This document shows positions 31,667 to 42,389 of a stretch of DNA of 64,000 nt, in pieces. The translations under genes were made by a program, and so were the position numbers. Origin of the DNA: a virus. The stretch covers positions 96,001 through 160,000 of IMG/VR virus record IMGVR_UViG_3300009008_000005; one strand, given 5' to 3'. A model generated the notes under the pieces. That model made no database searches and was not told where the DNA came from. It saw only the letters and a list, made by a program, of their open reading frames with translations. Each line of letters opens with the position of its first letter. Position 1 is the first letter of the stretch.

Positions 31667-31691
31667 TACAAATCCAAGTACTTTTCTCGTT

Positions 31692-31700
31692 ATAAGAAGA
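31692..31700 (+). promoter_or_regulatory. ATAAG-class promoter motif upstream of the Ubl gene
   Basis: TATAAGAAGA. Confidence 0.5.
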
Positions 31701-31773
31701 TTGAATCCTGGGCCACTAGTTGGTGGTCCGTGTGCACGGATTTGCCATAACTATCCTCTCAAGGAGGGAACAT

Positions 31774-31986
31774 ATGATCTGCAAGGTCATGCGTATCGGC
31801 AGCGGGACCCGTGAGGTCGAGATCCCGGACGGCTCGGCCGTCCGCAACGCCCTGACGGCGGCTCAGTTCGAGACCCGAGGCGCCTCCGTCTCCGTGAATG
31901 GCATCGAGGCCACCATGGACACGGCACTGCAGGACGGCGACACCGTCAGTCTCGTGGCGAAGGTCGAGGGCGGCACCTCCGTCTAG
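31774..31986 (+). CDS. ubiquitin-like beta-grasp protein (ThiS/MoaD/Ub fold) with GG + TSV extension
   Basis: 70 aa: VEIPDGSAVRNAL...SVSVNG...DTALQDGDTVSLVAKVEGG-TSV; AAGGAGG SD. Confidence 0.85.
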   Translation: MICKVMRIGSGTREVEIPDGSAVRNALTAAQFETRGASVSVNGIEATMDTALQDGDTVSLVAKVEGGTSV

Positions 31987-32024
31987 GGGGACCATACTCG
32001 TCTCGCTCCGATGAAGGAACATGT

Positions 32025-32052
32025 GGGGGAGGGGGGTTCGCCTCCCTCCCCC
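32025..32052 (+). terminator. stem-loop after the Ubl gene
   Basis: GGGGGAGGGGGG-TTCG-CCTCCCTCCCCC; weak U-tract. Confidence 0.55.
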
Positions 32053-32129
32053 TAAGTTTCTCCCTAAAAGTATACCCATAAGTGGGATTATCTATATGTG
32101 TCTTGGGATGGATGGACAAGGAGGCAAGA

Positions 32130-33644
32130 ATGCCAGCAGGAGTTCAAGCAACCCGCCTACACGCCGACATGGTGTCGGTCTTGGGGGAACTCTCCTCTGA
32201 GATGAATGTAGGCATCCGAGCGGAGACGGTGAATCTCTCTCGGTTCTTCTCGCAATTCCCCGGAACGGAGGGCGACAGCGTCAGGCTGTTCTTCCACAAC
32301 GGGGAGCGTGGAACGCAGCAGGAGTTCAGCTTCGTCGTGGACGGAACTGAGTGCAAGGTCAAATTCGCCATGGCCCAGCACAATCCGAACCTCTTCGAGG
32401 AAGGGGTCGAAACCCAGCTGCGGATCCCTGTCGGTGGCGGCGAATCCACAGACCTGATCGGTGTCTACGGAGGGACACAGATCATGTTCGGTGCAGACCT
32501 CAACAACCTCTTCACACACCCGGAATACATCGAGGGAGATGTGACGGCCAAGGACTTGGCCAAGCACATCCTGAAGAGTGCCCTCTCCGGAATCATGGAC
32601 AGCATCGAGAACCGTGGGCGGGAGGAGTTCGCAGACACCCTCATGACCATGTACAGGGCGAGCGTGGCCCTGTGGCGGGAGACCATCACGAACAACGACG
32701 CCTCGATCGACAACCACCTGCGCCAGCTGAGCGAGCTGTACACTCGCAACCAGGCCACTCGGGCGCAGATCAACGCCTTCGACGGCACCATGCAGACCGC
32801 ACGGGACAAGGCGAAGGAGGAGTACGAGAAGCTCGTCCGACTGGTTGGAACCTCCTTGGAGGAAGTCCAGGTCGTCAACCGGCGTCTGCAGCTCCGTACG
32901 TCGGAAATGCACATCGAGTACGACGGGATCGATTACAACATCGGCCGAATCGTGATCGACACCCCCATCCTCGGCAACTCTGGCGAGGTGACAATGTTCA
33001 GCTACGACGGCAGGGACCAGAACGGATGCGCCCACCCGCACGTCAGCGGTGGTCGGGTCTGCTGGGGAAACGTGGGAGGCACGATCACGGAAGCGCTCTC
33101 CACAGGGGAAGTGCTCCAGGCTGTGTTGGCCATGCTCGCCTACCTCCAGTCGTACAACTCCGAGGATGCCTACACGGACATCCAGAACTGGGGCGATGCC
33201 TACGACCGTAACCAGGCCTGTCGTGAAGACCACAGCACGGATGAGTGCGCTCGCTGCGACAGTGAGGAGTGCCCATATCGGGAGGAGAGCCGACAGGAGT
33301 GCTTCGACGACCACACCCGTGACGAGTGTATCCGCTGCAACTCCTGTCCCCTCGCAAATGAAGCGGCAGAGAACTGCCTACGTGAACTGCTCTCGACCAA
33401 CACTCTCGGTAGGTGCATGGAAACTTGCACCGTCAACACGTGCAGATTCTTCCGGAACCCTGTTCGCTGCAGAAACGTCATCGGATCCTGTCCGACTGCT
33501 TGCACTGCTGACACCTCGTGCTATCGACACCCGTCGTATTCTTCGGGTGACCCCGGCGGTGGTGGAAGTTCAGAGATCTCTGTGAGCCGCAACATGAGCA
33601 TCACCGGAAGCGGTGACCAGTTCGACATCGTGAGGAGGGCCTAA
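32130..33644 (+). CDS. coiled-coil + E2/UBC-fold conjugating-enzyme-like domain + Cys-rich tail
   Basis: HPHVSGGRVCWG matches the E2 HPN-x(n)-C active-site signature; AAGGAGG SD. Confidence 0.75.
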   Translation: MPAGVQATRLHADMVSVLGELSSEMNVGIRAETVNLSRFFSQFPGTEGDSVRLFFHNGERGTQQEFSFVVDGTECKVKFAMAQHNPNLFEEGVETQLRIPVGGGESTDLIGVYGGTQIMFGADLNNLFTHPEYIEGDVTAKDLAKHILKSALSGIMDSIENRGREEFADTLMTMYRASVALWRETITNNDASIDNHLRQLSELYTRNQATRAQINAFDGTMQTARDKAKEEYEKLVRLVGTSLEEVQVVNRRLQLRTSEMHIEYDGIDYNIGRIVIDTPILGNSGEVTMFSYDGRDQNGCAHPHVSGGRVCWGNVGGTITEALSTGEVLQAVLAMLAYLQSYNSEDAYTDIQNWGDAYDRNQACREDHSTDECARCDSEECPYREESRQECFDDHTRDECIRCNSCPLANEAAENCLRELLSTNTLGRCMETCTVNTCRFFRNPVRCRNVIGSCPTACTADTSCYRHPSYSSGDPGGGGSSEISVSRNMSITGSGDQFDIVRRA

Positions 33645-34849
33645 TGACGGGTACGACAACAACGAAGCCTACCGGAACCACCAACACGACCGGGAGCCGG
33701 GTGAACCCGGACCTGGTCAAGCCTCACGTCTATATCATGCCCCGTGCCGATGCCAAGATCTGGCACTGGGTCCGAATGGCGACAGGTGAGGTCTCCGGCC
33801 TCGGCCTGGTCGACGTGATCGACGGACAGATGGTCGTGTCCGATGTCTTCCTGCCCAAGCAGGAGTGCACCTCGGCGGACACGGACCTGGACCAGCAGGC
33901 GGTGGCACAGCTCATGATGGAGCTGGACAACGAAGGCGTGGACCTGGGGAAGCTCCGGTTCTGGTGGCATAGCCATGCCGACATGGAGGTGTTCTGGAGC
34001 GGGACTGACACGGGTACCATGCAGGAGCTGAGCGGGGGCGACACGTTCCTCCTCTCGATGGTCGTCAACAAGAAGCACGACCGGAAGCTCCGGGTGGACA
34101 TGTTCAACCCCTTCAACATGATCCTCGACAACCTCGGGGCCAGCGTCCTCGACCTCTCCGATGAGGAGCTGAAGGAGGAGTGCAAGAAGGCGTTCGACGA
34201 GAACGTCTCCGAGGGCTACTCCGGCTACTACTCTGGGTCGACCCACAACCGCAGCGGCGGACGGTCCTCCACCAATGCCACCCACTCGGTCACCTCCGCC
34301 ACACGGAGGAAGATTGGGTTTCAGGCAGGGAAAACGCCCACCTCGCAGATCTCGGTCTGGAATTCCAAGGACGGAGTGTGGGAGGACCACTACACGTACG
34401 CCGAGGGGGAGCCGAAGATCGTCACGTCGTCGGGTTCGGTCGTCGGAGTAGGTGCGTACCTCTCCAAGGAGGCCGAGGCCATCGCAGAACTCGCCCACGA
34501 GGAAGGGTGGGGAAGCTGCATCGAGCAGCGTGGTGACGAGGACGCCAACGAGGTCGCTCCCATCGAGCCCGAGGAACCCACCGATGAGGACGAGGAGATC
34601 ACGTACAAGAAGGTGGACGACATCACGGACCTGGTCTGCGACGCCTGCGGGAACTACGTGCTGGCCCTCGACCCCGAGGACATGATCACGATGGAGGGTC
34701 CCAAGGGCACGAACCCGCTGAAGCGGCAGGACATCACCCTGTACTGCGCAGACTGCGGCGAGGCACACCACGTGAACGTCCTGATGAAGTACGTCGATGG
34801 GGAGTGGATCCCCAAGCAGTGGGTGGAGGGAATCCATGTCGAAGCCTGA
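33644..34849 (+). CDS. JAB/MPN+ (JAMM) metallo-isopeptidase with C-terminal Zn ribbon
   Basis: E(VSG)...WWHSHADMEVFWSGTD = HxH-x7-SxxD; CDAC...CADC. Confidence 0.9.
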   Translation: MTGTTTTKPTGTTNTTGSRVNPDLVKPHVYIMPRADAKIWHWVRMATGEVSGLGLVDVIDGQMVVSDVFLPKQECTSADTDLDQQAVAQLMMELDNEGVDLGKLRFWWHSHADMEVFWSGTDTGTMQELSGGDTFLLSMVVNKKHDRKLRVDMFNPFNMILDNLGASVLDLSDEELKEECKKAFDENVSEGYSGYYSGSTHNRSGGRSSTNATHSVTSATRRKIGFQAGKTPTSQISVWNSKDGVWEDHYTYAEGEPKIVTSSGSVVGVGAYLSKEAEAIAELAHEEGWGSCIEQRGDEDANEVAPIEPEEPTDEDEEITYKKVDDITDLVCDACGNYVLALDPEDMITMEGPKGTNPLKRQDITLYCADCGEAHHVNVLMKYVDGEWIPKQWVEGIHVEA

Positions 34850-35522
34850 GATCGACACCACCATCTACTGGCGGCAGATGGACGTGCTGCCCATGAAGAA
34901 GGTCCTCTCGGTCCCCGTCACCGTCGTCGGTGCGGGGGCCATCGGGAAGGCCATGGTCGAGGTCCTCTCCGGGATGGGGATCAACGACATCACCGTGTTC
35001 GATGCGGACAGCGTCGAGCCCCACAACCTTCCCAACCAGGGCTACCGGCCCTGCGACGTCGGGAAGCCGAAAGTCGAGGCGCTGGCCGAGATCGTGGAGG
35101 CCCTCACGGGATTCAAGATCAAAGGCATGAACGAGTGGTTCACGGACCAGAAGGTGTCCGAGATCACCGTGTGCGCAGTCGATAGCATGGACACGAGGAT
35201 GAAGCTCTGGGAGGCCATAGCTCCCCAGCTCCCGAAGCTCTACATCGACATGCGGATGGGAGCTGAGATCGGGCAGATCTTCTATGTGAACCCGTGGAGT
35301 CCCGGCTCCAAGCGGCAGTACGAAGCGAACCTGTTCCCGAGCGATGAGGCCGTCGAGGCACCATGCACGGAGAGGGCGACCAAGTACTGTGCGACGGGTA
35401 TCACGTCATTCGCAGCGGGCGGGGTGGCGAACTACCTCCGTGGTGAGGCGCTTCGTCCGCTCGTGCTGGACTTCAGGTGCGGTCAGGTCATCGATCTTCC
35501 GAAGGCCACCGAGAAGCCTTGA
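34836..35522 (+). CDS. ThiF/MoeB/E1-family adenylating enzyme
   Basis: YWRQ; VVGAGAIG; DADSVEPHNLPNQ; KPKVEAL; CAVDS; IDMRMG; APC (candidate thioester Cys); GGAGG SD. Confidence 0.9.
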   Translation: MSKPEIDTTIYWRQMDVLPMKKVLSVPVTVVGAGAIGKAMVEVLSGMGINDITVFDADSVEPHNLPNQGYRPCDVGKPKVEALAEIVEALTGFKIKGMNEWFTDQKVSEITVCAVDSMDTRMKLWEAIAPQLPKLYIDMRMGAEIGQIFYVNPWSPGSKRQYEANLFPSDEAVEAPCTERATKYCATGITSFAAGGVANYLRGEALRPLVLDFRCGQVIDLPKATEKP

Positions 35523-35535
35523 GTCCTCCATCCCA

Positions 35536-35557
35536 GGGGACCCCTTCGGGGGTCCCC
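35536..35557 (+). terminator. stem-loop closing the Ubl operon
   Basis: GGGGACCCC-TTCG-GGGGTCCCC. Confidence 0.55.
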
Positions 35558-38402: not shown

Positions 38403-39350
38403 ATGGCGGAGAAGGCAAAAATGCCAGCCGAGGCTAAGAAGATCGAGATCCCGTTCGACTCCATCGAACTGGACAAGTACGGCCTGCGTAACAGCAGGTC
38501 TGCAATTCCCAACACGGACAAGCTCCGGGCCTCCATCGAGGCGTTCGGTCTGCTCGTCCCAATGGTCGTGTGGAAGCCCCCAGGAAAGGATTCCTACGTC
38601 CTGTGCTGCGGGTACCTGCGACACAAGGCGATCACAGAAATCCGGTCCAAGGATGCAAAGCAGTACGAGACCATCGGAGTCTCCCTGCTGGACGGTGTTC
38701 CCCTCAACGACGCACTCTGCGTCAACCTCGAAGAGAACATCAAGAGGGAGACCCTCAACCACGCAGACCTCGCAGCCCGCATGTTCCTCCTGAACCACGG
38801 GCGCAAGATGAGCGAGACTGCCATCGCCGACAAGCTCAACGTGTCCCAGGGGTACGTAGCACGCCTCATCGGCGTGCACATGAACTGCATCGACGAAGTG
38901 CTCCAGGCTCTCCGTGAAGGCCTCATCTCCGTGCAGCGTGCAAAAGAGCTGGCCACCCTGGATCCGGAAGAGCAGCTCACCCACCTGGAGAAGCTGCTAG
39001 ACCCGGAGAAGGCCGAGGAGTTCCGGAAGAGGCTGGCCAAGAAGGTCGGGCACTCTCGTCCAGGTATCAAGGTTATCCAGGCGCAGATCAAGCAGCTGGA
39101 GAAGTACGAGGGGGACCAGGATGTTGGCTATCGGCGTGGTGCTCTCGCTGCGCTCCGCTTCTCCTTGGGTACAGCCGAGGAAATACTCCTCTTCCACCCG
39201 CCTGAGTCTGCATCAGGGTCTGCCTTGAAGAAGACCATGAAGAAGCCTGACAAGAAGAAGGTCGCCGAGAAGAAGTTCCCGACCAAGAAGGAAACAAAGA
39301 AGAAGTCTGCGAAGAAGAAGAAGCTGGTCACGAAGAGGAGCAAGTCCTAG
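38403..39350 (+). CDS. ParB/Noc-like CTP- and DNA-binding protein with Lys-rich tail
   Basis: LRASIEAFGLLVPMVV...GYLRHKA (GxxRxxA); EENIKRETLN; HTH SETAIADKLNVSQGYVARLI. Confidence 0.8.
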   Translation: MAEKAKMPAEAKKIEIPFDSIELDKYGLRNSRSAIPNTDKLRASIEAFGLLVPMVVWKPPGKDSYVLCCGYLRHKAITEIRSKDAKQYETIGVSLLDGVPLNDALCVNLEENIKRETLNHADLAARMFLLNHGRKMSETAIADKLNVSQGYVARLIGVHMNCIDEVLQALREGLISVQRAKELATLDPEEQLTHLEKLLDPEKAEEFRKRLAKKVGHSRPGIKVIQAQIKQLEKYEGDQDVGYRRGALAALRFSLGTAEEILLFHPPESASGSALKKTMKKPDKKKVAEKKFPTKKETKKKSAKKKKLVTKRSKS

Positions 39351-40988
39351 ATGACGCAGCTTGAATCTCTCATTTGTTCCGACTACCCGTTGACCTACGT
39401 CATCACGTCGGAAGAAGAGAGGCTCCTGTTGGAGCTGGACAGGATCCTGAAAGATAACGATATGCACGCTGAGGTGCACGCATGGGACATCGTCAACGGT
39501 GTTCGCCCGGTGTACATCCGGGAAGGCGTACCTCAGTTCGGTGACTCCATCGTCATGGGTCCTGATCCCTCCGCAGGGGTTGAGTGGCTGGGAGAGAGGA
39601 ACAAGGACACGATCCTTCTGTTCCTCGACATCCATCGTACATTCGATGACGCCCAGTCCGTTCGTGCTCTTCGGAATGTTCTACAACTACGCCACCACAA
39701 CGACGTGGCACGCACAGCGATGATCGTGTCCCCTATCTCCGAGGTTCCTCCAGAACTCCGTAGGCAGGTGGCCGTCATCGACTTCGACCTACCGACCCGC
39801 TTGGATATCGCAGAGTACCTCGCAGTGAAGCAGAAGAAGGCCGAGCTGGGAGACGCACTGGGAAGCAAGCCTGAGGACCTCACTGACATCATCGACGCTT
39901 GTAGAGGGCTGACCCTCTACGAGATAGAGAATGTACTCGCACGAGCCTACATCGAGGAGGGCAAGGTAAGCCCCGAAATCGTAGTTCGTGAGAAGAAGTC
40001 CATCATCAGGTCCAGCCGTTCCCTTCAGTACTATGACACCAAGGAGTCACTGGAGAACGTCGGTGGTCTAGAGAACATTCACAAATGGTTAGCGCAGCGC
40101 AGATTGGCTTTCTCTCCGAAGGCCAGAGAGTTCGGGTTACCATACCCAAGAGGGATCCTCCTTGTAGGAGTCCCTGGTGGCGGGAAAAGCCTGGTGTGCA
40201 AAGCAGTGTGCGCCAGCTGGAAGATTCCTCTACTACAGTGGAACGTGGGTGCGTCCTTCGGAAAGTACCTGGGAGAGACTGAAGGTGAGGAGAGGAACGT
40301 AGAGAAGACCTCCGAAGCTGTAGCTCCTTGCGGGTTGTGGGCCGACGAGATCGACAAGGGTCTTGGAGCTTCCGCCGCAGGTGGTGGAGCTACTGACGGT
40401 GGAACAGGGGCCCGCATGGTCGGGAGCTTCCTCACATGGATGGAAGAGAAGACGGAACCTGTCTTCGTCCTCGCCACCTGCAATGCCATTGAAGGTCTAG
40501 GGCCGCTTCTACGCCGAGGCAGGTTCGACGAGATCTTCTTTGTAGATGTACCTAACGAGAATGCTCTTGGACAGATACTTGAGATCCACATCCGACTGAA
40601 GGGTAGGGACCCGGAGAAGTTCGATATCCCTCGCCTTGTGGAGAGGTCCTTAGGCCTTGTGGGAGCTGAAGTGAAGAGCGCTATCGAAGATGCACTCTTC
40701 CTAGACTTCGAGAAAGGTCAGGAATTGTCACAAGAGTCCTTGGAGACATGTCTACTTCGAGTCATTCCGCACTGCATCACACGGAAGGACGAGATAGCGA
40801 GGTTGCGAAAATGGGCAGAAGACAAAGCCCAACCGGCGCAATCAGAGCCTCTGGATTTACAGAGAGCTTTGGACTTGCGAGAGCAGTTGGCCCAACAATC
40901 CCAGCAGGGATCACGCAGATCTTTGGCCCGCCGGGGTCGGGTAAAACGTCGCTTGCCCTCTGGCTCGAAGGCCTCGCCCAAAAAGTAA
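39351..40988 (+). CDS. AAA+ ATPase (Ycf46-like)
   Basis: Walker A GVPGGGKS, Walker B LWADEIDK, SRH LLRRGRFDEIFFVDVP; C-terminal EIARLRKWA. Confidence 0.9.
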   Translation: MTQLESLICSDYPLTYVITSEEERLLLELDRILKDNDMHAEVHAWDIVNGVRPVYIREGVPQFGDSIVMGPDPSAGVEWLGERNKDTILLFLDIHRTFDDAQSVRALRNVLQLRHHNDVARTAMIVSPISEVPPELRRQVAVIDFDLPTRLDIAEYLAVKQKKAELGDALGSKPEDLTDIIDACRGLTLYEIENVLARAYIEEGKVSPEIVVREKKSIIRSSRSLQYYDTKESLENVGGLENIHKWLAQRRLAFSPKAREFGLPYPRGILLVGVPGGGKSLVCKAVCASWKIPLLQWNVGASFGKYLGETEGEERNVEKTSEAVAPCGLWADEIDKGLGASAAGGGATDGGTGARMVGSFLTWMEEKTEPVFVLATCNAIEGLGPLLRRGRFDEIFFVDVPNENALGQILEIHIRLKGRDPEKFDIPRLVERSLGLVGAEVKSAIEDALFLDFEKGQELSQESLETCLLRVIPHCITRKDEIARLRKWAEDKAQPAQSEPLDLQRALDLREQLAQQSQQGSRRSLARRGRVKRRLPSGSKASPKK

Positions 40989-41662
40989 GACCCACCTACT
41001 GGTTGAAGTTTGAGCCTCTACCTGAAAGGGATCACTTCATCCGCATGGGAGTGGACCTGGAGAAGCTACACATTGCTTCACCTAAGACTCTGGACGGAGG
41101 GTACAGCCATCTACGTTCCCTCGTCCCTCACTCACTCGTCGTATGGGACTGTCTAGACTCCACCAAGGTCGGAGACGGCCAAGAGCTTAGTAGCGGCACA
41201 CACGGCGTCTACGAGCCTCTGGTGGAGTACTTTGAGGACATAGCGAACCTGGTACACGAGTTCGGCATATCCCTGATTGTCATCTCCCAGGTTCGCCAGT
41301 CCTTCAAAAACCCCCGGGAAGTCATATCTTCAATGGAGTACCTCCTACCCTTCTTCGTCATGTCGTTGAGTGTAGAGGTCAAGAAAACCGAGTCCAGGTT
41401 CGGTGAAAAGACCTGGAAGCGCATGCATGTGCATGCCCGTAGAAATCTGACCTGGCCACCAGGCGGAAGTGCCGACTTACACTATCACGAGACCTTGGGG
41501 TTCTGCCCTGAGATCGAACTCGTAATAGAAGCTGAGAAGAAGTACGGACCTAAGTGGAGAAACGAGCTAGGTATCACCATGCCACGTGGCCGGGAACAAG
41601 CTGTAACACGAATCCGGGAGAACCCGGAACTATTCGAACAATTATGGAGGGCAGTGCTATGA
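40811..41662 (+). CDS. divergent RecA/UvsX-like ATPase
   Basis: ITQIFGPPGSGKTSLAL; DLEKLHIASP; LVVWD; LIVISQVRQ; SD GAGGT before 40811. Confidence 0.7.
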   Translation: MGRRQSPTGAIRASGFTESFGLARAVGPTIPAGITQIFGPPGSGKTSLALWLEGLAQKVRPTYWLKFEPLPERDHFIRMGVDLEKLHIASPKTLDGGYSHLRSLVPHSLVVWDCLDSTKVGDGQELSSGTHGVYEPLVEYFEDIANLVHEFGISLIVISQVRQSFKNPREVISSMEYLLPFFVMSLSVEVKKTESRFGEKTWKRMHVHARRNLTWPPGGSADLHYHETLGFCPEIELVIEAEKKYGPKWRNELGITMPRGREQAVTRIRENPELFEQLWRAVL

Positions 41663-41844
41663 AGAGGGCCGAGATCGAGATCCTTCCTGACGGGACGATG
41701 AAAGCAGAGGCCATCGACTTCGAGGGAAAGGGTTGTGAGGTGTTCCTACAGGAACTTACGAAGGGCCTGAAGCCAAAGAGTAAGCAGAGGAAGAAGGAGG
41801 CATTGGTCCTGGACAAGGCTCCAAGACAACGGCTCCGTACATGA
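41659..41844 (+). CDS. DUF2997-like protein
   Basis: IEILPDGTMKAEAIDFEGKGC; GGAGG SD. Confidence 0.7.
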   Translation: MKRAEIEILPDGTMKAEAIDFEGKGCEVFLQELTKGLKPKSKQRKKEALVLDKAPRQRLRT

Positions 41845-42389
41845 TCTATGCCGGGATCATTGAGAACAGTGAGGTGAATGGACCAGGACGGAGAAATGTA
41901 CTCTTCGTTCGTGGGTGCCCTCACGAGTGTCCTGGCTGCTACAACGCAAGTCTATGGGATCTCAGAGTCCCGGGTGCGTTGGAGGCTACACCAGAGGACC
42001 TAGCGGACAAGCTGATGATGGGTTCACCCGATGGTGTATCCATATCGGGAGGAGAGCCCCTGCTGCAGCTAGCAGAGCTACTCCGACTCTTGCAATCCCT
42101 GAATAGGGAGGGAGTTTCCGTAACCATCTTCACAGGTTACACCAAAGAGGAGATCATGGGTTCACCAATGATGTCCGCTGTGCTGAACCTTGTAGACATC
42201 CTTGTTTGCGGACGTTACGATTCTAGTCAGCCCTCAGGCGCTGGCTTGAGAGGTTCCGAGAACCAGGAGATTCTGGTGCTGAACGGTGAGTGGGATAAGG
42301 AAGAGTTGGAGACATGTCCACACTTCCTTGAGATCCATTCCGACCCACCGATCATCACAGGATTCCCTGCGGCAGCAATCTTGAAGTAG
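41841..42389 (+). CDS. radical SAM 4Fe-4S protein (NrdG/activase-like)
   Basis: VNGPGRR.VLFVRGCPHECPGCYN (CxxxCxxC); SISGGEP; DILVCGRY; GSENQ. Confidence 0.9.
   Translation: MIYAGIIENSEVNGPGRRNVLFVRGCPHECPGCYNASLWDLRVPGALEATPEDLADKLMMGSPDGVSISGGEPLLQLAELLRLLQSLNREGVSVTIFTGYTKEEIMGSPMMSAVLNLVDILVCGRYDSSQPSGAGLRGSENQEILVLNGEWDKEELETCPHFLEIHSDPPIITGFPAAAILK

Follow-up and report, generated by a model that had tools for sequence, protein, structure and literature searches.

Bacterial ISG15-like anti-phage operons, BilABCD, encode a ubiquitin-like tag (Ubl), an E2, a JAB protease and an E1 in that order and without a separate E3 (Chambers et al., PMC10557695; Hor et al., 10.1101/2023.09.04.556158). 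The Bil E1 is large, its Cys domain being separate from the inactive and active adenylation domains, and in the Bil E2 the HPN histidine is missing and a conserved His follows the Cys (CEHH). Where a single residue masks a Bil tag, the tag was shown to depend on its JAB, and type II tags, in which up to nine residues follow the glycine, were shown to be pre-processed by theirs (PMC10557695). The operon of Caldiarchaeum subterraneum joins Ub, E1, E2, RING and Rpn11 genes and combines an HPN-type UBC E2 with an Rpn11-like JAMM protease by which the tag precursor is matured (PMC3082918; PMC5654768; Fuchs et al. 2018, cited in PMC10557695). Bacterial conjugation by E1, E2, Ubl and peptidase is also the work of the Bub (6E / DUF6527) operons (PMC11601596, PMC11601603). 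In Type II CBASS an E2-E1 fusion (Cap2) is partnered by a JAB (Cap3) in phage-bacterium conflict, and the archaeal SAMP/UbaA/HvJAMM1 system, Thermus TtuB/TtuC and the sulfur carriers ThiS-ThiF and MoaD-MoeB have no E2. In searchable papers, the only phage-encoded pair of JAB and ubiquitin-like proteins described is that of lambda, in which gpK (JAB + NlpC/P60) cleaves a ubiquitin-like domain off gpI (PMC1779556; PMC12908700); the pair lies in the tail cluster, with neither E1 nor E2.

The four-gene locus described here, found in a marine phage genome, is best explained as a self-contained ubiquitin-like protein-conjugation cassette of a large tailed phage. We hold this reading to be probable and, since no biochemistry exists, the thioesters, the cleavage and the conjugates are all inferred. 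The genome is an IMG/VR record of 180,825 bp (CheckV, 99% complete) and the window, that is the whole stretch of 64,000 nt analysed, encodes tail sheath, major head protein and large terminase, in agreement with the phage and not chromosomal origin assumed in the first-pass annotation; the term 'jumbo' used there does not apply, the genome (181 kb) lying below the usual line of 200 kb. All four consecutive plus-strand genes were present as annotated, in the order Ubl-E2-JAB-E1 and tightly packed. Of the span first proposed, 31692-35557, the end coincides with the last base of a hairpin located after E1, whereas the tag gene itself starts at 31774. The E2 stop and the JAB start overlap in TAATG, the JAB and E1 frames overlap by 14 nt, and these three genes are translationally coupled. 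The cassette is surrounded by plus-strand non-structural genes (ParB, AAA ATPase, RecA-like), opposite the virion module, and the gene annotation of the window does not place it inside a tail or virion module. Owing to this location, a role during infection, on host or on phage non-virion proteins, is favoured over one in particle building; the roles initially suggested, modification of host proteins or jamming of host Ubl-based defences, remain untested. No partner E3 gene accompanies the cassette, no CD-NTase or effector was detected near it, and its sequence was found only in DNA runs, without expression data.

The tag precursor (31774..31986, plus strand) has 70 amino acids, from an ATG at 31774 preceded by an AGGAGG ribosome-binding site to a stop at 31986. 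It matched Pfam ThiS (29.9 bits, 8.4e-07; cut-off 22.5), as a beta-grasp protein of ThiS type, and in NCBIfam gave partial ThiS/MoaD/SAMP matches. Its C-terminus, ...VAKVEGG-TSV, places three masking residues after G66-G67. The proposal that this masked GG would need the JAB gained support from the relatives, in which masking is nearly universal: from 29 loci where a tag homologue adjoins the cassette, 26 end in GG plus one to five variable residues and none ends at a bare GG. In one homologue two tags follow each other head to tail, with a GG where they join. Moreover, the tag ending tracks the presence of JAB, six JAB-less cassettes having a conserved ERPQGS terminus and the tag of the cultured Xanthomonas phage PhiXhv-12, the one further relative without JAB that was examined, ending in bare GG. 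A masked GG alone is nevertheless no proof of conjugation, since JAB-processed tags occur also in the sulfur-carrier systems CysO/Mec+ and QbsE/QbsD.

The JAB/MPN+ (JAMM) metalloprotease (33644..34849, plus strand; 401 aa), with AGGAGG in front of its start, consists of a catalytic domain at about residues 25-160 and a C-terminal half with a CxxC...CxxC pair. The HSH-x7-SxxD motif noticed earlier is present as H109-S-H111-x7-S119-x2-D122 and, together with E49, forms an intact active site, whose residues E49, H109, H111, S119 and D122 are invariant in 45 homologues. In the PDB it matched best the Rpn11-like protein of Caldiarchaeum (6fjv, E 4.4e-05), with Rpn11/PSMD14 next, and the alignment to Rpn11-type deubiquitinases retains all catalytic residues; Pfam Prok-JAB gave only 0.077.

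Canonical E1s hand over to E2 via a separate catalytic-Cys domain and a ubiquitin-fold domain. Neither is found in the minimal ThiF-type E1 of the cassette (34836..35522, plus strand; 228 aa), nor is a rhodanese domain. Its ORF opens at 34797, but the start is probably the ATG at 34836, which has a GGAGGG ribosome-binding site upstream and gives the 14-nt overlap with the JAB stop. The protein matched Pfam ThiF (1.4e-22, 80.5 bits), contains the GAGAIG, NLPNQ and APC motifs originally listed, and found its best PDB matches in the active adenylation domains of Uba1, UBA3 and UBA5. In 42 homologues (241-aa numbering) G45, G47, G50, D69, D71, N77, K92, D129, R134, R153 and C190 are invariant. In PADLOC it matched only CBASS-type E1 domains, the best being CBASS E1-E2 proteins (3.4e-13).

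The E2-like protein (32130..33644, plus strand; 504 aa) matched no Pfam, PHROG, PADLOC or NCBIfam model; Pfam UQ_con remained below threshold, with one of 40 family members matching, at 0.0024. Its relatives form 765 clusters at E<=1e-3. The AlphaFold2 model (150 sequences; pLDDT 85, and 91 in a second AlphaFold model) predicts a beta-rich N-domain (aa 1-130), a long helix (140-236), a UBC core (221-360), a Cys-rich helical tail (364-464) and a disordered end. The first-pass annotation had taken this gene for an E2, a reading that would have fallen without a UBC fold, and the fold found is UBC-like. The assignment of residues 221-360 (32790..33209) to the E2/UBC fold holds on modelled structure and sequence, the thioester chemistry being inferred, because three independent lines lead to it. 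The family profile aligned its HPHV..G.PCLGN stretch to HPNIDEKGQVCLPV of human UbcH7 (E 0.0032), HPH falling on the HPN motif and C311 on the catalytic Cys86. Foldseek against the PDB returned, in the top 50, E2/UFC1 enzymes except for one low-probability virion row; the top matches were almost all E2s with both the full and the domain model, and UbcH7 gave prob 0.99-1.00 and TM 0.51. Finally, an unbiased domain-only search of 48,161 chains gave UBC/UEV/RWD folds in all 50 top rows. VIA-align yielded Z 7.4-7.9 over 118-123 of about 150 residues, and by Z, Foldseek E (about 4e-3) and TM (about 0.5) the matches of the predicted structure are of middling strength. The putative active site, H302-P303-H304-x6-C311 followed by G313 and N314 (33033..33062), lies in HPHVSGGRVCWG (H302-C311); H302, P303, H304, C311 and G313 are invariant in 40 diverse homologues and the family motif, HPH-x6/7-C, has His as third residue instead of the Asn of HPN. 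Across 40-45 divergent homologues, none of the three enzymes varies at its active-site residues.

The tail of this protein (C364...C464; 33219..33521) has four repeats of four Cys and is predicted to be helical. From these cysteines C364, C373, C376, C381 and C391 are invariant, and C400, C403 and C406 at least 90% conserved, in 40 homologues; the search assigned no family or fold to the tail, and metal binding and a substrate or E3-like role can only be inferred. The phage genome has two further E2 paralogues, one with Asp instead of the Cys, and hence non-catalytic UBC folds are in use in this genome.

In the mechanism that we propose, the tag would first be made as the 70-aa beta-grasp precursor ending in GG-TSV, from which the JAMM protease would cut off TSV and expose Gly67; the protease would probably also reverse conjugates. 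The ThiF-type E1, probably a homodimer, would adenylate Gly67 with ATP, and the tag would then be loaded onto the invariant crossover-loop Cys190 and passed by transthioesterification to Cys311 of the E2-like protein, beside the HPH that replaces the eukaryotic HPN. Targets, whose identities are unknown, may be picked by the E2-like protein through its own N-terminal domain, long coiled-coil helix and four Cys4 repeats, and the tag would be transferred to their lysines. The core of the earlier reading, a phage Ubl/E2/JAB/E1 set distinct from ThiS/MoaD sulfur systems, survived every in-silico test run.

Membership of Bil, CBASS or the sulfur carriers was rejected, the cassette failing all three tests despite its Bil gene order. 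The likeness to Bil that had been pointed out stands for Type I/II BilABCD in gene order, in the absence of a separate E3 and in the expected chemistry; it does not extend to membership, as the cassette has HPH-x6/7-C in a 504-aa protein with extra domains, a single-domain E1 and a phage carrier, where Bil is host defence. The Caldiarchaeum operon, source of the best solved-structure match of the JAB, has the HPN-type UBC E2 and the Rpn11-like JAMM protease in common with the cassette; it differs in its RING E3, its ubiquitin-like and not ThiS-like tag sequence, its non-minimal E1 and an E2 without coiled coil and Cys4 repeats. The E2 domain of Cap2 superposes on the E2 model at Z 5.1 and BubB (9eav_D) at Z 5.2, eukaryotic E2s being better (Z 7.4). 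Unlike Type II CBASS the cassette has E1 and E2 in separate genes and a dedicated beta-grasp tag, and unlike Bub its peptidase is a JAMM enzyme and its tag a single small beta-grasp. A ThiS/MoaD-like GG tag, a single-domain E1 and a JAMM protease, with partial NCBIfam matches to ThiS, SAMP1/2 and UbaA, recall the E2-less systems, from which the obligatory UBC-fold member and the lack of a sulfur-pathway partner separate it. In contrast to the lambda pair, a full activation and transfer set is encoded, outside the virion module.

A DNA scan of viral and bacterial-genome sequences with the E2 motif alone gave 62 loci (16 viral and 46 bacterial-genome). Since nearly all have JAB and/or E1 adjoining, the arrangement is not due to chance; the E2-JAB-E1 order occurs in about 30 of them, with partial sets where the locus is cut off. 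The cassette is one of a large family, in many phages and some bacterial genomes, that is undescribed in the searchable literature. As the four-gene kit belongs to such a recurring family, protein tagging much like that by ubiquitin in eukaryotic cells is probable for the phages bearing it. It is present, too, on contigs from bacterial genome assemblies, one of them with housekeeping ETF genes adjacent to it; therefore the cassette is not phage-specific and its role need not serve the phage.

The bacterial copies, three of them in one Myxococcota chromosome of 5.98 Mb and one beside a 1212-aa NOV_C protein, together with a gene order identical to BilABCD, leave some room for a Bil-like module of immunity or exclusion, with which the phage would fight co-infecting phages by tagging their structural proteins, as Bil tags a tail fibre. 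The GC3, anomalous for the phage, would be expected of an acquired cassette, and the ParB-type gene is compatible with a carrier state. We consider this unlikely, however, as the E2 bears no Bil signature and the E1 no Bil domain structure, E2 and tag are without PADLOC match and the E1 matches only CBASS-type domains. Furthermore, Crassvirales and FpV4-like phages have a related JAB-E1 pair within replication modules, which suggests a phage-cycle role, and the two additional E2 paralogues kept by the phage would be unusual for a passenger defence gene. Still less likely is that tag and JAB form, after the pattern of lambda gpI and gpK, a non-covalent assembly or timing device, or a decoy or deconjugase against host Bil or CBASS, the E2 transferring nothing. 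Phage JAB and Ubl pairs without conjugation are known (PMC1779556; PMC12908700), host conjugates might in principle be undone by a phage JAB, and the paralogue with Asp is at hand as a non-catalytic UBC fold. Yet the E1, with invariant ATP site and Cys, is always present and would be needless in a cleavage-only device, the Cys of the operon E2 is kept in 40/40 aligned homologues, and the cassette lies outside the tail/virion module. About equally doubtful is a sulfur-carrier pathway. In it, adenylation by the E1 would turn the ThiS-like protein into a thiocarboxylate, from which sulfur would pass to cofactor, tRNA or DNA modification; the JAB would do no more than trim the carrier, and the 504-aa protein would serve as sulfur relay or scaffold. 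In its favour, the top scores of the tag are those with ThiS/MoaD models, the single-domain E1 has the size of ThiF, JABs trim carriers in CysO/Mec+ and QbsE/QbsD, and GenBank annotates phage homologues as 'thiamine biosynthesis protein'. Against it, the E1 lacks a rhodanese domain, searches of the 181-kb genome found neither a rhodanese nor a PP-loop thiolase, a cysteine desulfurase or MoaE, the neighbours match no biosynthetic family and, as the initial contrast with sulfur systems had anticipated, the invariably linked third gene has a UBC fold with an invariant HPH...C that is absent from sulfur pathways.

The conjugation reading also accommodates the layout of the locus. A 12-bp GC-rich hairpin, GGGGGAGGGGGG-ttcg-CCTCCCTCCCCC (32025..32052, plus strand), lies 3' of the tag gene and a terminator-like one, GGGGACCCC-ttcg-GGGGTCCCC (35536..35557, plus strand), 3' of E1; both were read from the sequence, with their function inferred, and they bound the units. 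The first is a possible attenuator or terminator that would make the tag transcript more abundant than the enzyme transcript. A tag with its own promoter-like motif and trailing hairpin, followed by coupled enzymes, fits a stoichiometric substrate and its enzymes. The GC3 bias claimed earlier was stronger than stated, the four genes having 0.90, 0.77, 0.87 and 0.86 against 0.54-0.80 in 19 other genes and 0.77 in the capsid gene; foreign origin can explain it equally as well as high expression. The promoter-like hexamers, whose promoter function is inferred only, are TATAAG (31691..31696, plus strand), 78 nt upstream of the tag gene, and CATAAG (32077..32082, plus strand), 48 nt upstream of the E2 gene. 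In the window YATAAG occurs more often than in shuffles (48 matches versus 29.2 +/- 5.8) and stands just 5' of plus-strand genes at 31691, 32077, 35585, 36327 and 37968.

The four plus-strand genes that the first-pass annotation had read as a phage-borne conjugation operon for a ubiquitin-like protein (Ubl) are real, and their predicted layout is that of a tag unit followed by a translationally coupled three-enzyme unit. The tag gene (31774-31986, +) encodes 70 amino acids ending in VAKVEGG-TSV, with an AGGAGG site in front and a 12-bp GC hairpin on its 3' side (32025-32052). The stop codon of the E2-like gene (32130-33644, +) overlaps the start of the JAB gene (33644-34849, +) as TAATG, and the latter is also preceded by AGGAGG. 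The frame of the E1 gene opens at 34797, contains an ATG at 34836 with a GGAGGG site and a 14-nt overlap with the JAB stop, and ends at 35522 (+), ahead of a perfect 9-bp hairpin (35536-35557). The virus record spans 180,825 bp and is rated 99% complete by CheckV, and a tail sheath, a major head protein, a large terminase and a ParB-like protein are encoded in the window. These virion genes and the ParB-like gene, together with the near-completeness of the record, identify the source as a large tailed phage; it had also been called a jumbo phage, a term that does not hold because the genome falls slightly short of the conventional 200-kb limit. The region is present in three marine metagenome DNA runs from one study, and no RNA run is among the public runs listed as containing it. 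The GC3 of the four genes (31774-35522) ranges from 0.77 to 0.90, the highest in the window, against 0.54-0.80 in the 19 other genes, a composition compatible both with high expression and with uptake from a source richer in GC. The closest cassettes occur in Myxococcota metagenome-assembled genomes (MAGs) of 64-68% GC, yet E1 identity to them is only 44%.

The 504-aa E2-like protein was not recognised by Pfam, PHROG, PADLOC, NCBIfam or PDB sequence searches, it had no match at E<=1 to the Pfam UQ_con (PF00179) or Prok-E2 families, and a word-indexed protein search returned only the protein itself. Its relatives, 765 clusters at E<=1e-3, emerged only when 1.84 billion representatives were scanned in full with HMMER, and UQ_con matches a single one of 40 homologues, at 0.0024. 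In the alignment of 40 diverse members His302, Pro303, His304, Cys311 and Gly313 are invariant, Asn314 and a FLxSYNxxxPY stretch are nearly so, and four repeats of four cysteines lie C-terminal of the active-site region. The spacing is HPH-x6-C in the window protein and HPH-x7-C in most homologues, the third residue being His and not Asn. When the family profile was compared with PDB sequences, human UBE2L3/UbcH7 ranked first (E 0.0032), HPHV..G.PCLGN being aligned onto UbcH7 HPNIDEKGQVCLPV, that is, onto its HPN motif and catalytic Cys86. For the Cys-rich tail and the N-domain, Pfam scans brought no usable match, and neither blastn of the region against GenBank phages nor tblastn of the E2 against phages produced a match.

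The AlphaFold2 model of the full protein (pLDDT 85) comprises a beta-rich N-domain, a helix of ~95 residues, a compact core (residues 221-360) and a helical Cys-rich tail; the core modelled alone reached pLDDT 91.3 and pTM 0.84. In a Foldseek search of the PDB with the full model, the top 50 rows were E2 or UFC1 enzymes except for one low-probability virion row at rank 45, and the best of them had probabilities of 0.97-0.99 with E about 1e-2. The core model matched UbcH7 with probability 1.00 and TM 0.51. VIA-align superimposed 116-123 of about 150 residues with Z 7.0-7.9, the rmsd being 3.6-4.0 for the matches with Z 7.4-7.9 and 118-123 aligned residues. Of 48,161 chains scanned independently of Foldseek, only 53 reached Z 5, and the best 50 of these 53 were all UBC, UEV or RWD folds. 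Eukaryotic E2s scored Z 7.4, compared with 5.2 for BubB and 5.1 for Cap2; BilB was absent among the structural matches listed, which is no evidence that the folds differ. The UBC fold is defined by an N-terminal helix, a four-stranded meander, an active-site loop and a crossover helix. The match is thus a moderate one (Z < 8), but only UBC-type folds appear. Given scores that are moderate yet unanimous and an active-site sequence alignment that agrees with them, a UBC fold with an E2-type active site is regarded as established in silico, from models and alignments, and thioester formation is inferred. The E2 assignment had been the weakest part of the original proposal, and it was borne out by models, Foldseek, VIA-align and profile, which converge on the fold and on an HPN-like motif with its cysteine.

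The same genome has two adjacent short paralogues of the E2 core, roughly 1.6-2.9 kb ahead of the first base of the window, in a stretch retrieved as L022 (L022:1471-2016 and L022:2089-2838, corresponding to about 93079-93624 and 93697-94446 of G000:C1). One keeps HPH...C (249 aa) and the other has Asp in place of Cys (181 aa), so that by sequence the two would resemble a pair of active E2 and UEV-like protein. Another phage contig, of 178 kb, also carries three E2 copies (loci L013 and L014).

The partners of the E2 carry the residues expected of them. The E1, a single ThiF domain of 228-241 aa, scores 80.5 bits against Pfam ThiF PF00899 (cut-off 28.1, E 1.4e-22). Among solved structures it comes closest to the active adenylation domains of Uba1, UBA3, UBA5 and Uba4, and in PADLOC it matches best the E1 parts of CBASS Cap2 proteins. 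Residues Gly45, Gly47, Gly50, Asp69, Asp71, Lys92, Asp129, Arg134 and Arg153 of the ATP/Mg site are invariant in 42 homologues (numbering of the 241-aa form), as is Cys190 of the crossover loop (APC; 42/42), a cysteine suited to a thioester or an acyl-persulfide. The JAB protein remains below threshold for Pfam Prok-JAB (0.077), and a Pfam scan of its C-terminal half returned no usable match. Its alignments to the Caldiarchaeum Rpn11-like deubiquitinase 6fjv (E 4.4e-05) and to Rpn11/PSMD14 place the zinc-site Glu, HxH, Ser and Asp in register; the JAMM site E...HxH-x7-S-x2-D is represented by Glu49, His109, His111, Ser119 and Asp122, invariant in all 45 homologues. With a UBC fold, an E2-type active site and invariant catalytic residues, all assessed in silico, the Ubl-E2-JAB-E1 interpretation is supported.

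The tag scores 29.9 bits against Pfam ThiS (cut-off 22.5) and gives partial matches to ThiS, MoaD and SAMP models. At the sequence level it qualifies as a beta-grasp protein with a C-terminal di-glycine, Gly66-Gly67 being followed by TSV. Most of its homologues (26/29) end in [KR][VI][ED]GG plus 1-5 non-conserved residues, and none of the 29 ends at GG. Eight cassettes lack JAB; a tag gene was found in six of them, and each of these tags ends in a conserved ERPQGS. The cultured Xanthomonas jumbo phage PhiXhv-12 has a bare-GG tag and no detectable JAB. The tag ending thus covaries with the presence of JAB, the strongest evidence available that JAB would serve first of all to unmask the tag glycine. 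JAB-dependent unmasking has been shown experimentally in Bil (PMC10557695). In the JAB-less subfamily, found on MAG contigs L026, L028, L030, L037, L067 and L069, the tag gene lies 3' of E1 and terminates in ...ERPQGS instead of GG plus variable residues. A further locus (L010:4207-4614, -) holds a tag gene with two head-to-tail beta-grasp units (...AIKGG-SDIF...AIKGG-F) and GG at their junction, like a polyubiquitin precursor.

Conservation of the gene set was analysed by scanning public collections for the E2 motif alone, with a hand-made degenerate DNA pattern of HPHV...PCLGN. The scan retrieved 16 viral stretches and 46 stretches in bacterial genome assemblies; an alignment-seeded scan added one further viral locus, and locus searches seeded with a single E2 or E1 protein gave none. 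When six-frame ORFs of the retrieved loci were searched with the four window proteins, E2-JAB-E1 appeared in that order in about 30 loci, with partial sets where the fetched DNA ends, and the tag gene was located just upstream of E2 or just downstream of E1. The bacterial matches are mostly MAGs of Myxococcota, Planctomycetota, candidate-phyla bacteria and Gammaproteobacteria. One 5.98-Mb Myxococcota chromosome has three copies, and one locus adjoins electron-transfer-flavoprotein genes, hence at least some cassettes are chromosomal. Viral and MAG rows intermingle in the E1 tree, where sequences that are nearly identical bear different phylum labels; this suggests that some 'bacterial' contigs are mis-binned phages. 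The tree has no well-supported clade containing the window E1 and, since no other row exceeds 44% identity to this protein, neither a donor nor a direction of transfer can be named. Three pairs of contigs have nearly identical E1 genes (L055 and L049, L044 and L040, L042 and L060) under labels of Gammaproteobacteria versus Pirellulales, Buchananbacteria or Moranbacteria, and they are probably phage DNA binned into wrong genomes.

Homologues of the E1 occur in 80 GenBank phage records, among them Crassvirales (cr85_1, PhiCrAssBcn isolates, DAC15/17), Flavobacterium FpV4-like phages, 227-kb Xanthomonas and Erwinia phages and a 595-kb uncultured phage. In cr85_1 and FpV4 an unknown protein, a JAB-like 'metalloprotease' and ThiF are encoded in that order inside the replication module, and both JABs match the window JAB. 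Comparison of the gene upstream of JAB in these two phages with the E2 family by hhalign was not significant (E 0.14 and 0.24). The cr85_1 protein contains MHSH...PCLG...PY, which resembles the E2 motif, and the E2 model matched in BFVD uncharacterised proteins of the crAss-like phages ctDAq1 and cr128_1 (probability 0.99 and 0.96); on these two grounds, homology of the cr85_1 protein to E2, and with it membership of Crassvirales in the family, is probable and not shown. Just upstream of the E2-like/JAB/ThiF trio, cr85_1 (L002:1954-2610) and FpV4 (L003:1607-2476) have a gene for a 218-289-aa protein with an unmasked terminal glycine (...EGLIG, ...AKMFG), which might be the moiety activated by the E1 of those phages. 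The PhiXhv-12 locus (L071, PV764601.1:140252-144128, from a 227-kb genome) encodes a 140-aa protein ending in ...ASGG, an 892-aa protein with IHPH...C, and a ThiF annotated as 'thiamine biosynthesis protein', probably wrongly.

Among known systems, Bil shares with the cassette the gene order Ubl-E2-JAB-E1, the tag gene following E1 in some relatives, and the cassette works alike as far as its inferred catalytic steps go. However, the Bil E2 has a CEHH-type site, with a His after the Cys and without the HPN histidine, whereas the cassette E2 has HPH before the Cys and, after it, conserves only Gly313 and Asn314 and no His; moreover, the Bil E1 combines inactive and active adenylation domains with an inserted Cys domain, in contrast to the single ThiF domain here. 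Membership of BilABCD (type I/II) therefore failed on E2 active-site signature and E1 architecture. In type II CBASS an E2-E1 fusion stands beside a CD-NTase and an effector, whereas in the cassette the JAB gene stands between an E2 gene and an E1 gene of their own; this assignment failed because there is no fusion and no CD-NTase match in the nine neighbouring genes scanned. The eukaryote-like Caldiarchaeum operon is similar in E2 motif and Rpn11-like JAB, but the cassette lacks a RING gene and has a ThiS-like tag and a minimal E1. No description of the cassette was found in the searchable literature, including a 2006 survey of prokaryotic Ubl operons (PMC1779556), and a 2021 jumbo-phage survey makes no mention of an E1-like, JAB, ThiF or E2-like gene. 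The cassette represents a new family within an already known kind of system, all of its catalytic steps being inferred.

The strongest rival to a cassette that tags proteins for the benefit of infection is a Bil-like module carried by the phage to exclude other phages, a proposal that differs in biology and not in chemistry. The bacterial copies and the odd composition of the cassette fit such a module, but two observations speak against it: several phage lineages have a related JAB-E1 pair within their replication modules, and the genome holds two extra E2 paralogues. A sulfur-carrier pathway is unlikely: a rhodanese domain is missing from the E1, the set has as an obligatory component an E2 whose Cys is invariant, and no rhodanese, cysteine desulfurase, MoaE or PP-loop thiolase was detected in the whole 180,825-bp genome by searches that matched control genomes, although host enzymes are not excluded. 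Membership of the ThiS-ThiF/MoaD-MoeB systems failed on these same sulfur donor and acceptor enzymes. A cleavage-only device of the lambda gpI/gpK kind would make the E1 needless.

A more far-reaching reading is held only tentatively, with the balance slightly against it. In this reading the cassette would found a very large family (at least 765 clusters), undescribed as far as found, of stand-alone conjugation cassettes, in which the UBC core of the E2, HPN-like and of eukaryote type, is fused to variable N-terminal modules and to Cys4 repeats, making an E2/E3 hybrid that can do without a separate ligase. Members of the family would occur across tailed phages, among them cultured jumbo phages and probably Crassvirales, the phages most abundant in the human gut, and phages would use them to tag host or viral proteins in the course of infection. 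If true, it would be a first for prokaryotic viruses, a protein-ubiquitylation-type system parallel to those of giant and animal viruses acting on eukaryotic hosts. To our knowledge, accounts of bacterial Ubl conjugation (CBASS Cap2, Bil, Bub) have until now presented it as an anti-phage weapon of the host; a complete, conserved phage-side cassette would show viruses using the same chemistry and raises the question of its targets. Since the E2 keeps an HPN-like motif absent from Bil E2s and is structurally nearer to eukaryotic E2s than to BubB and Cap2, the family bears on the evolution of the E2 active site. No curated model names this E2 family, and its partner E1 is labelled 'thiamine biosynthesis protein' in dozens of GenBank phage genomes, a label that is probably wrong. 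Cultured relatives, namely PhiXhv-12, Erwinia phage Ep032, FpV4-like phages of Flavobacterium and crAss-like phages of Bacteroides, make the question testable at the bench.

On the 3' side of the cassette (38403-42389, +) lie genes for the ParB-like protein, an AAA ATPase (PHROG 8638), a RecA-like ATPase and a small radical-SAM/Fer4_12 protein that is NrdG- or QueE-like; the ParB and AAA genes are syntenic with the cassette in two viral loci (L008 and L016). Genes neighbouring the cassette have no match to a reverse-transcriptase family, and no link to a retron is seen. The hexamer YATAAG is overrepresented (48 matches versus 29 +/- 5.8 expected) and occurs at 31691, 32077, 35585, 36327 and 37968 (+), 29-83 nt 5' of consecutive plus-strand genes. 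It may be the phage's own promoter element, and separate copies precede the tag gene and the E2 gene.
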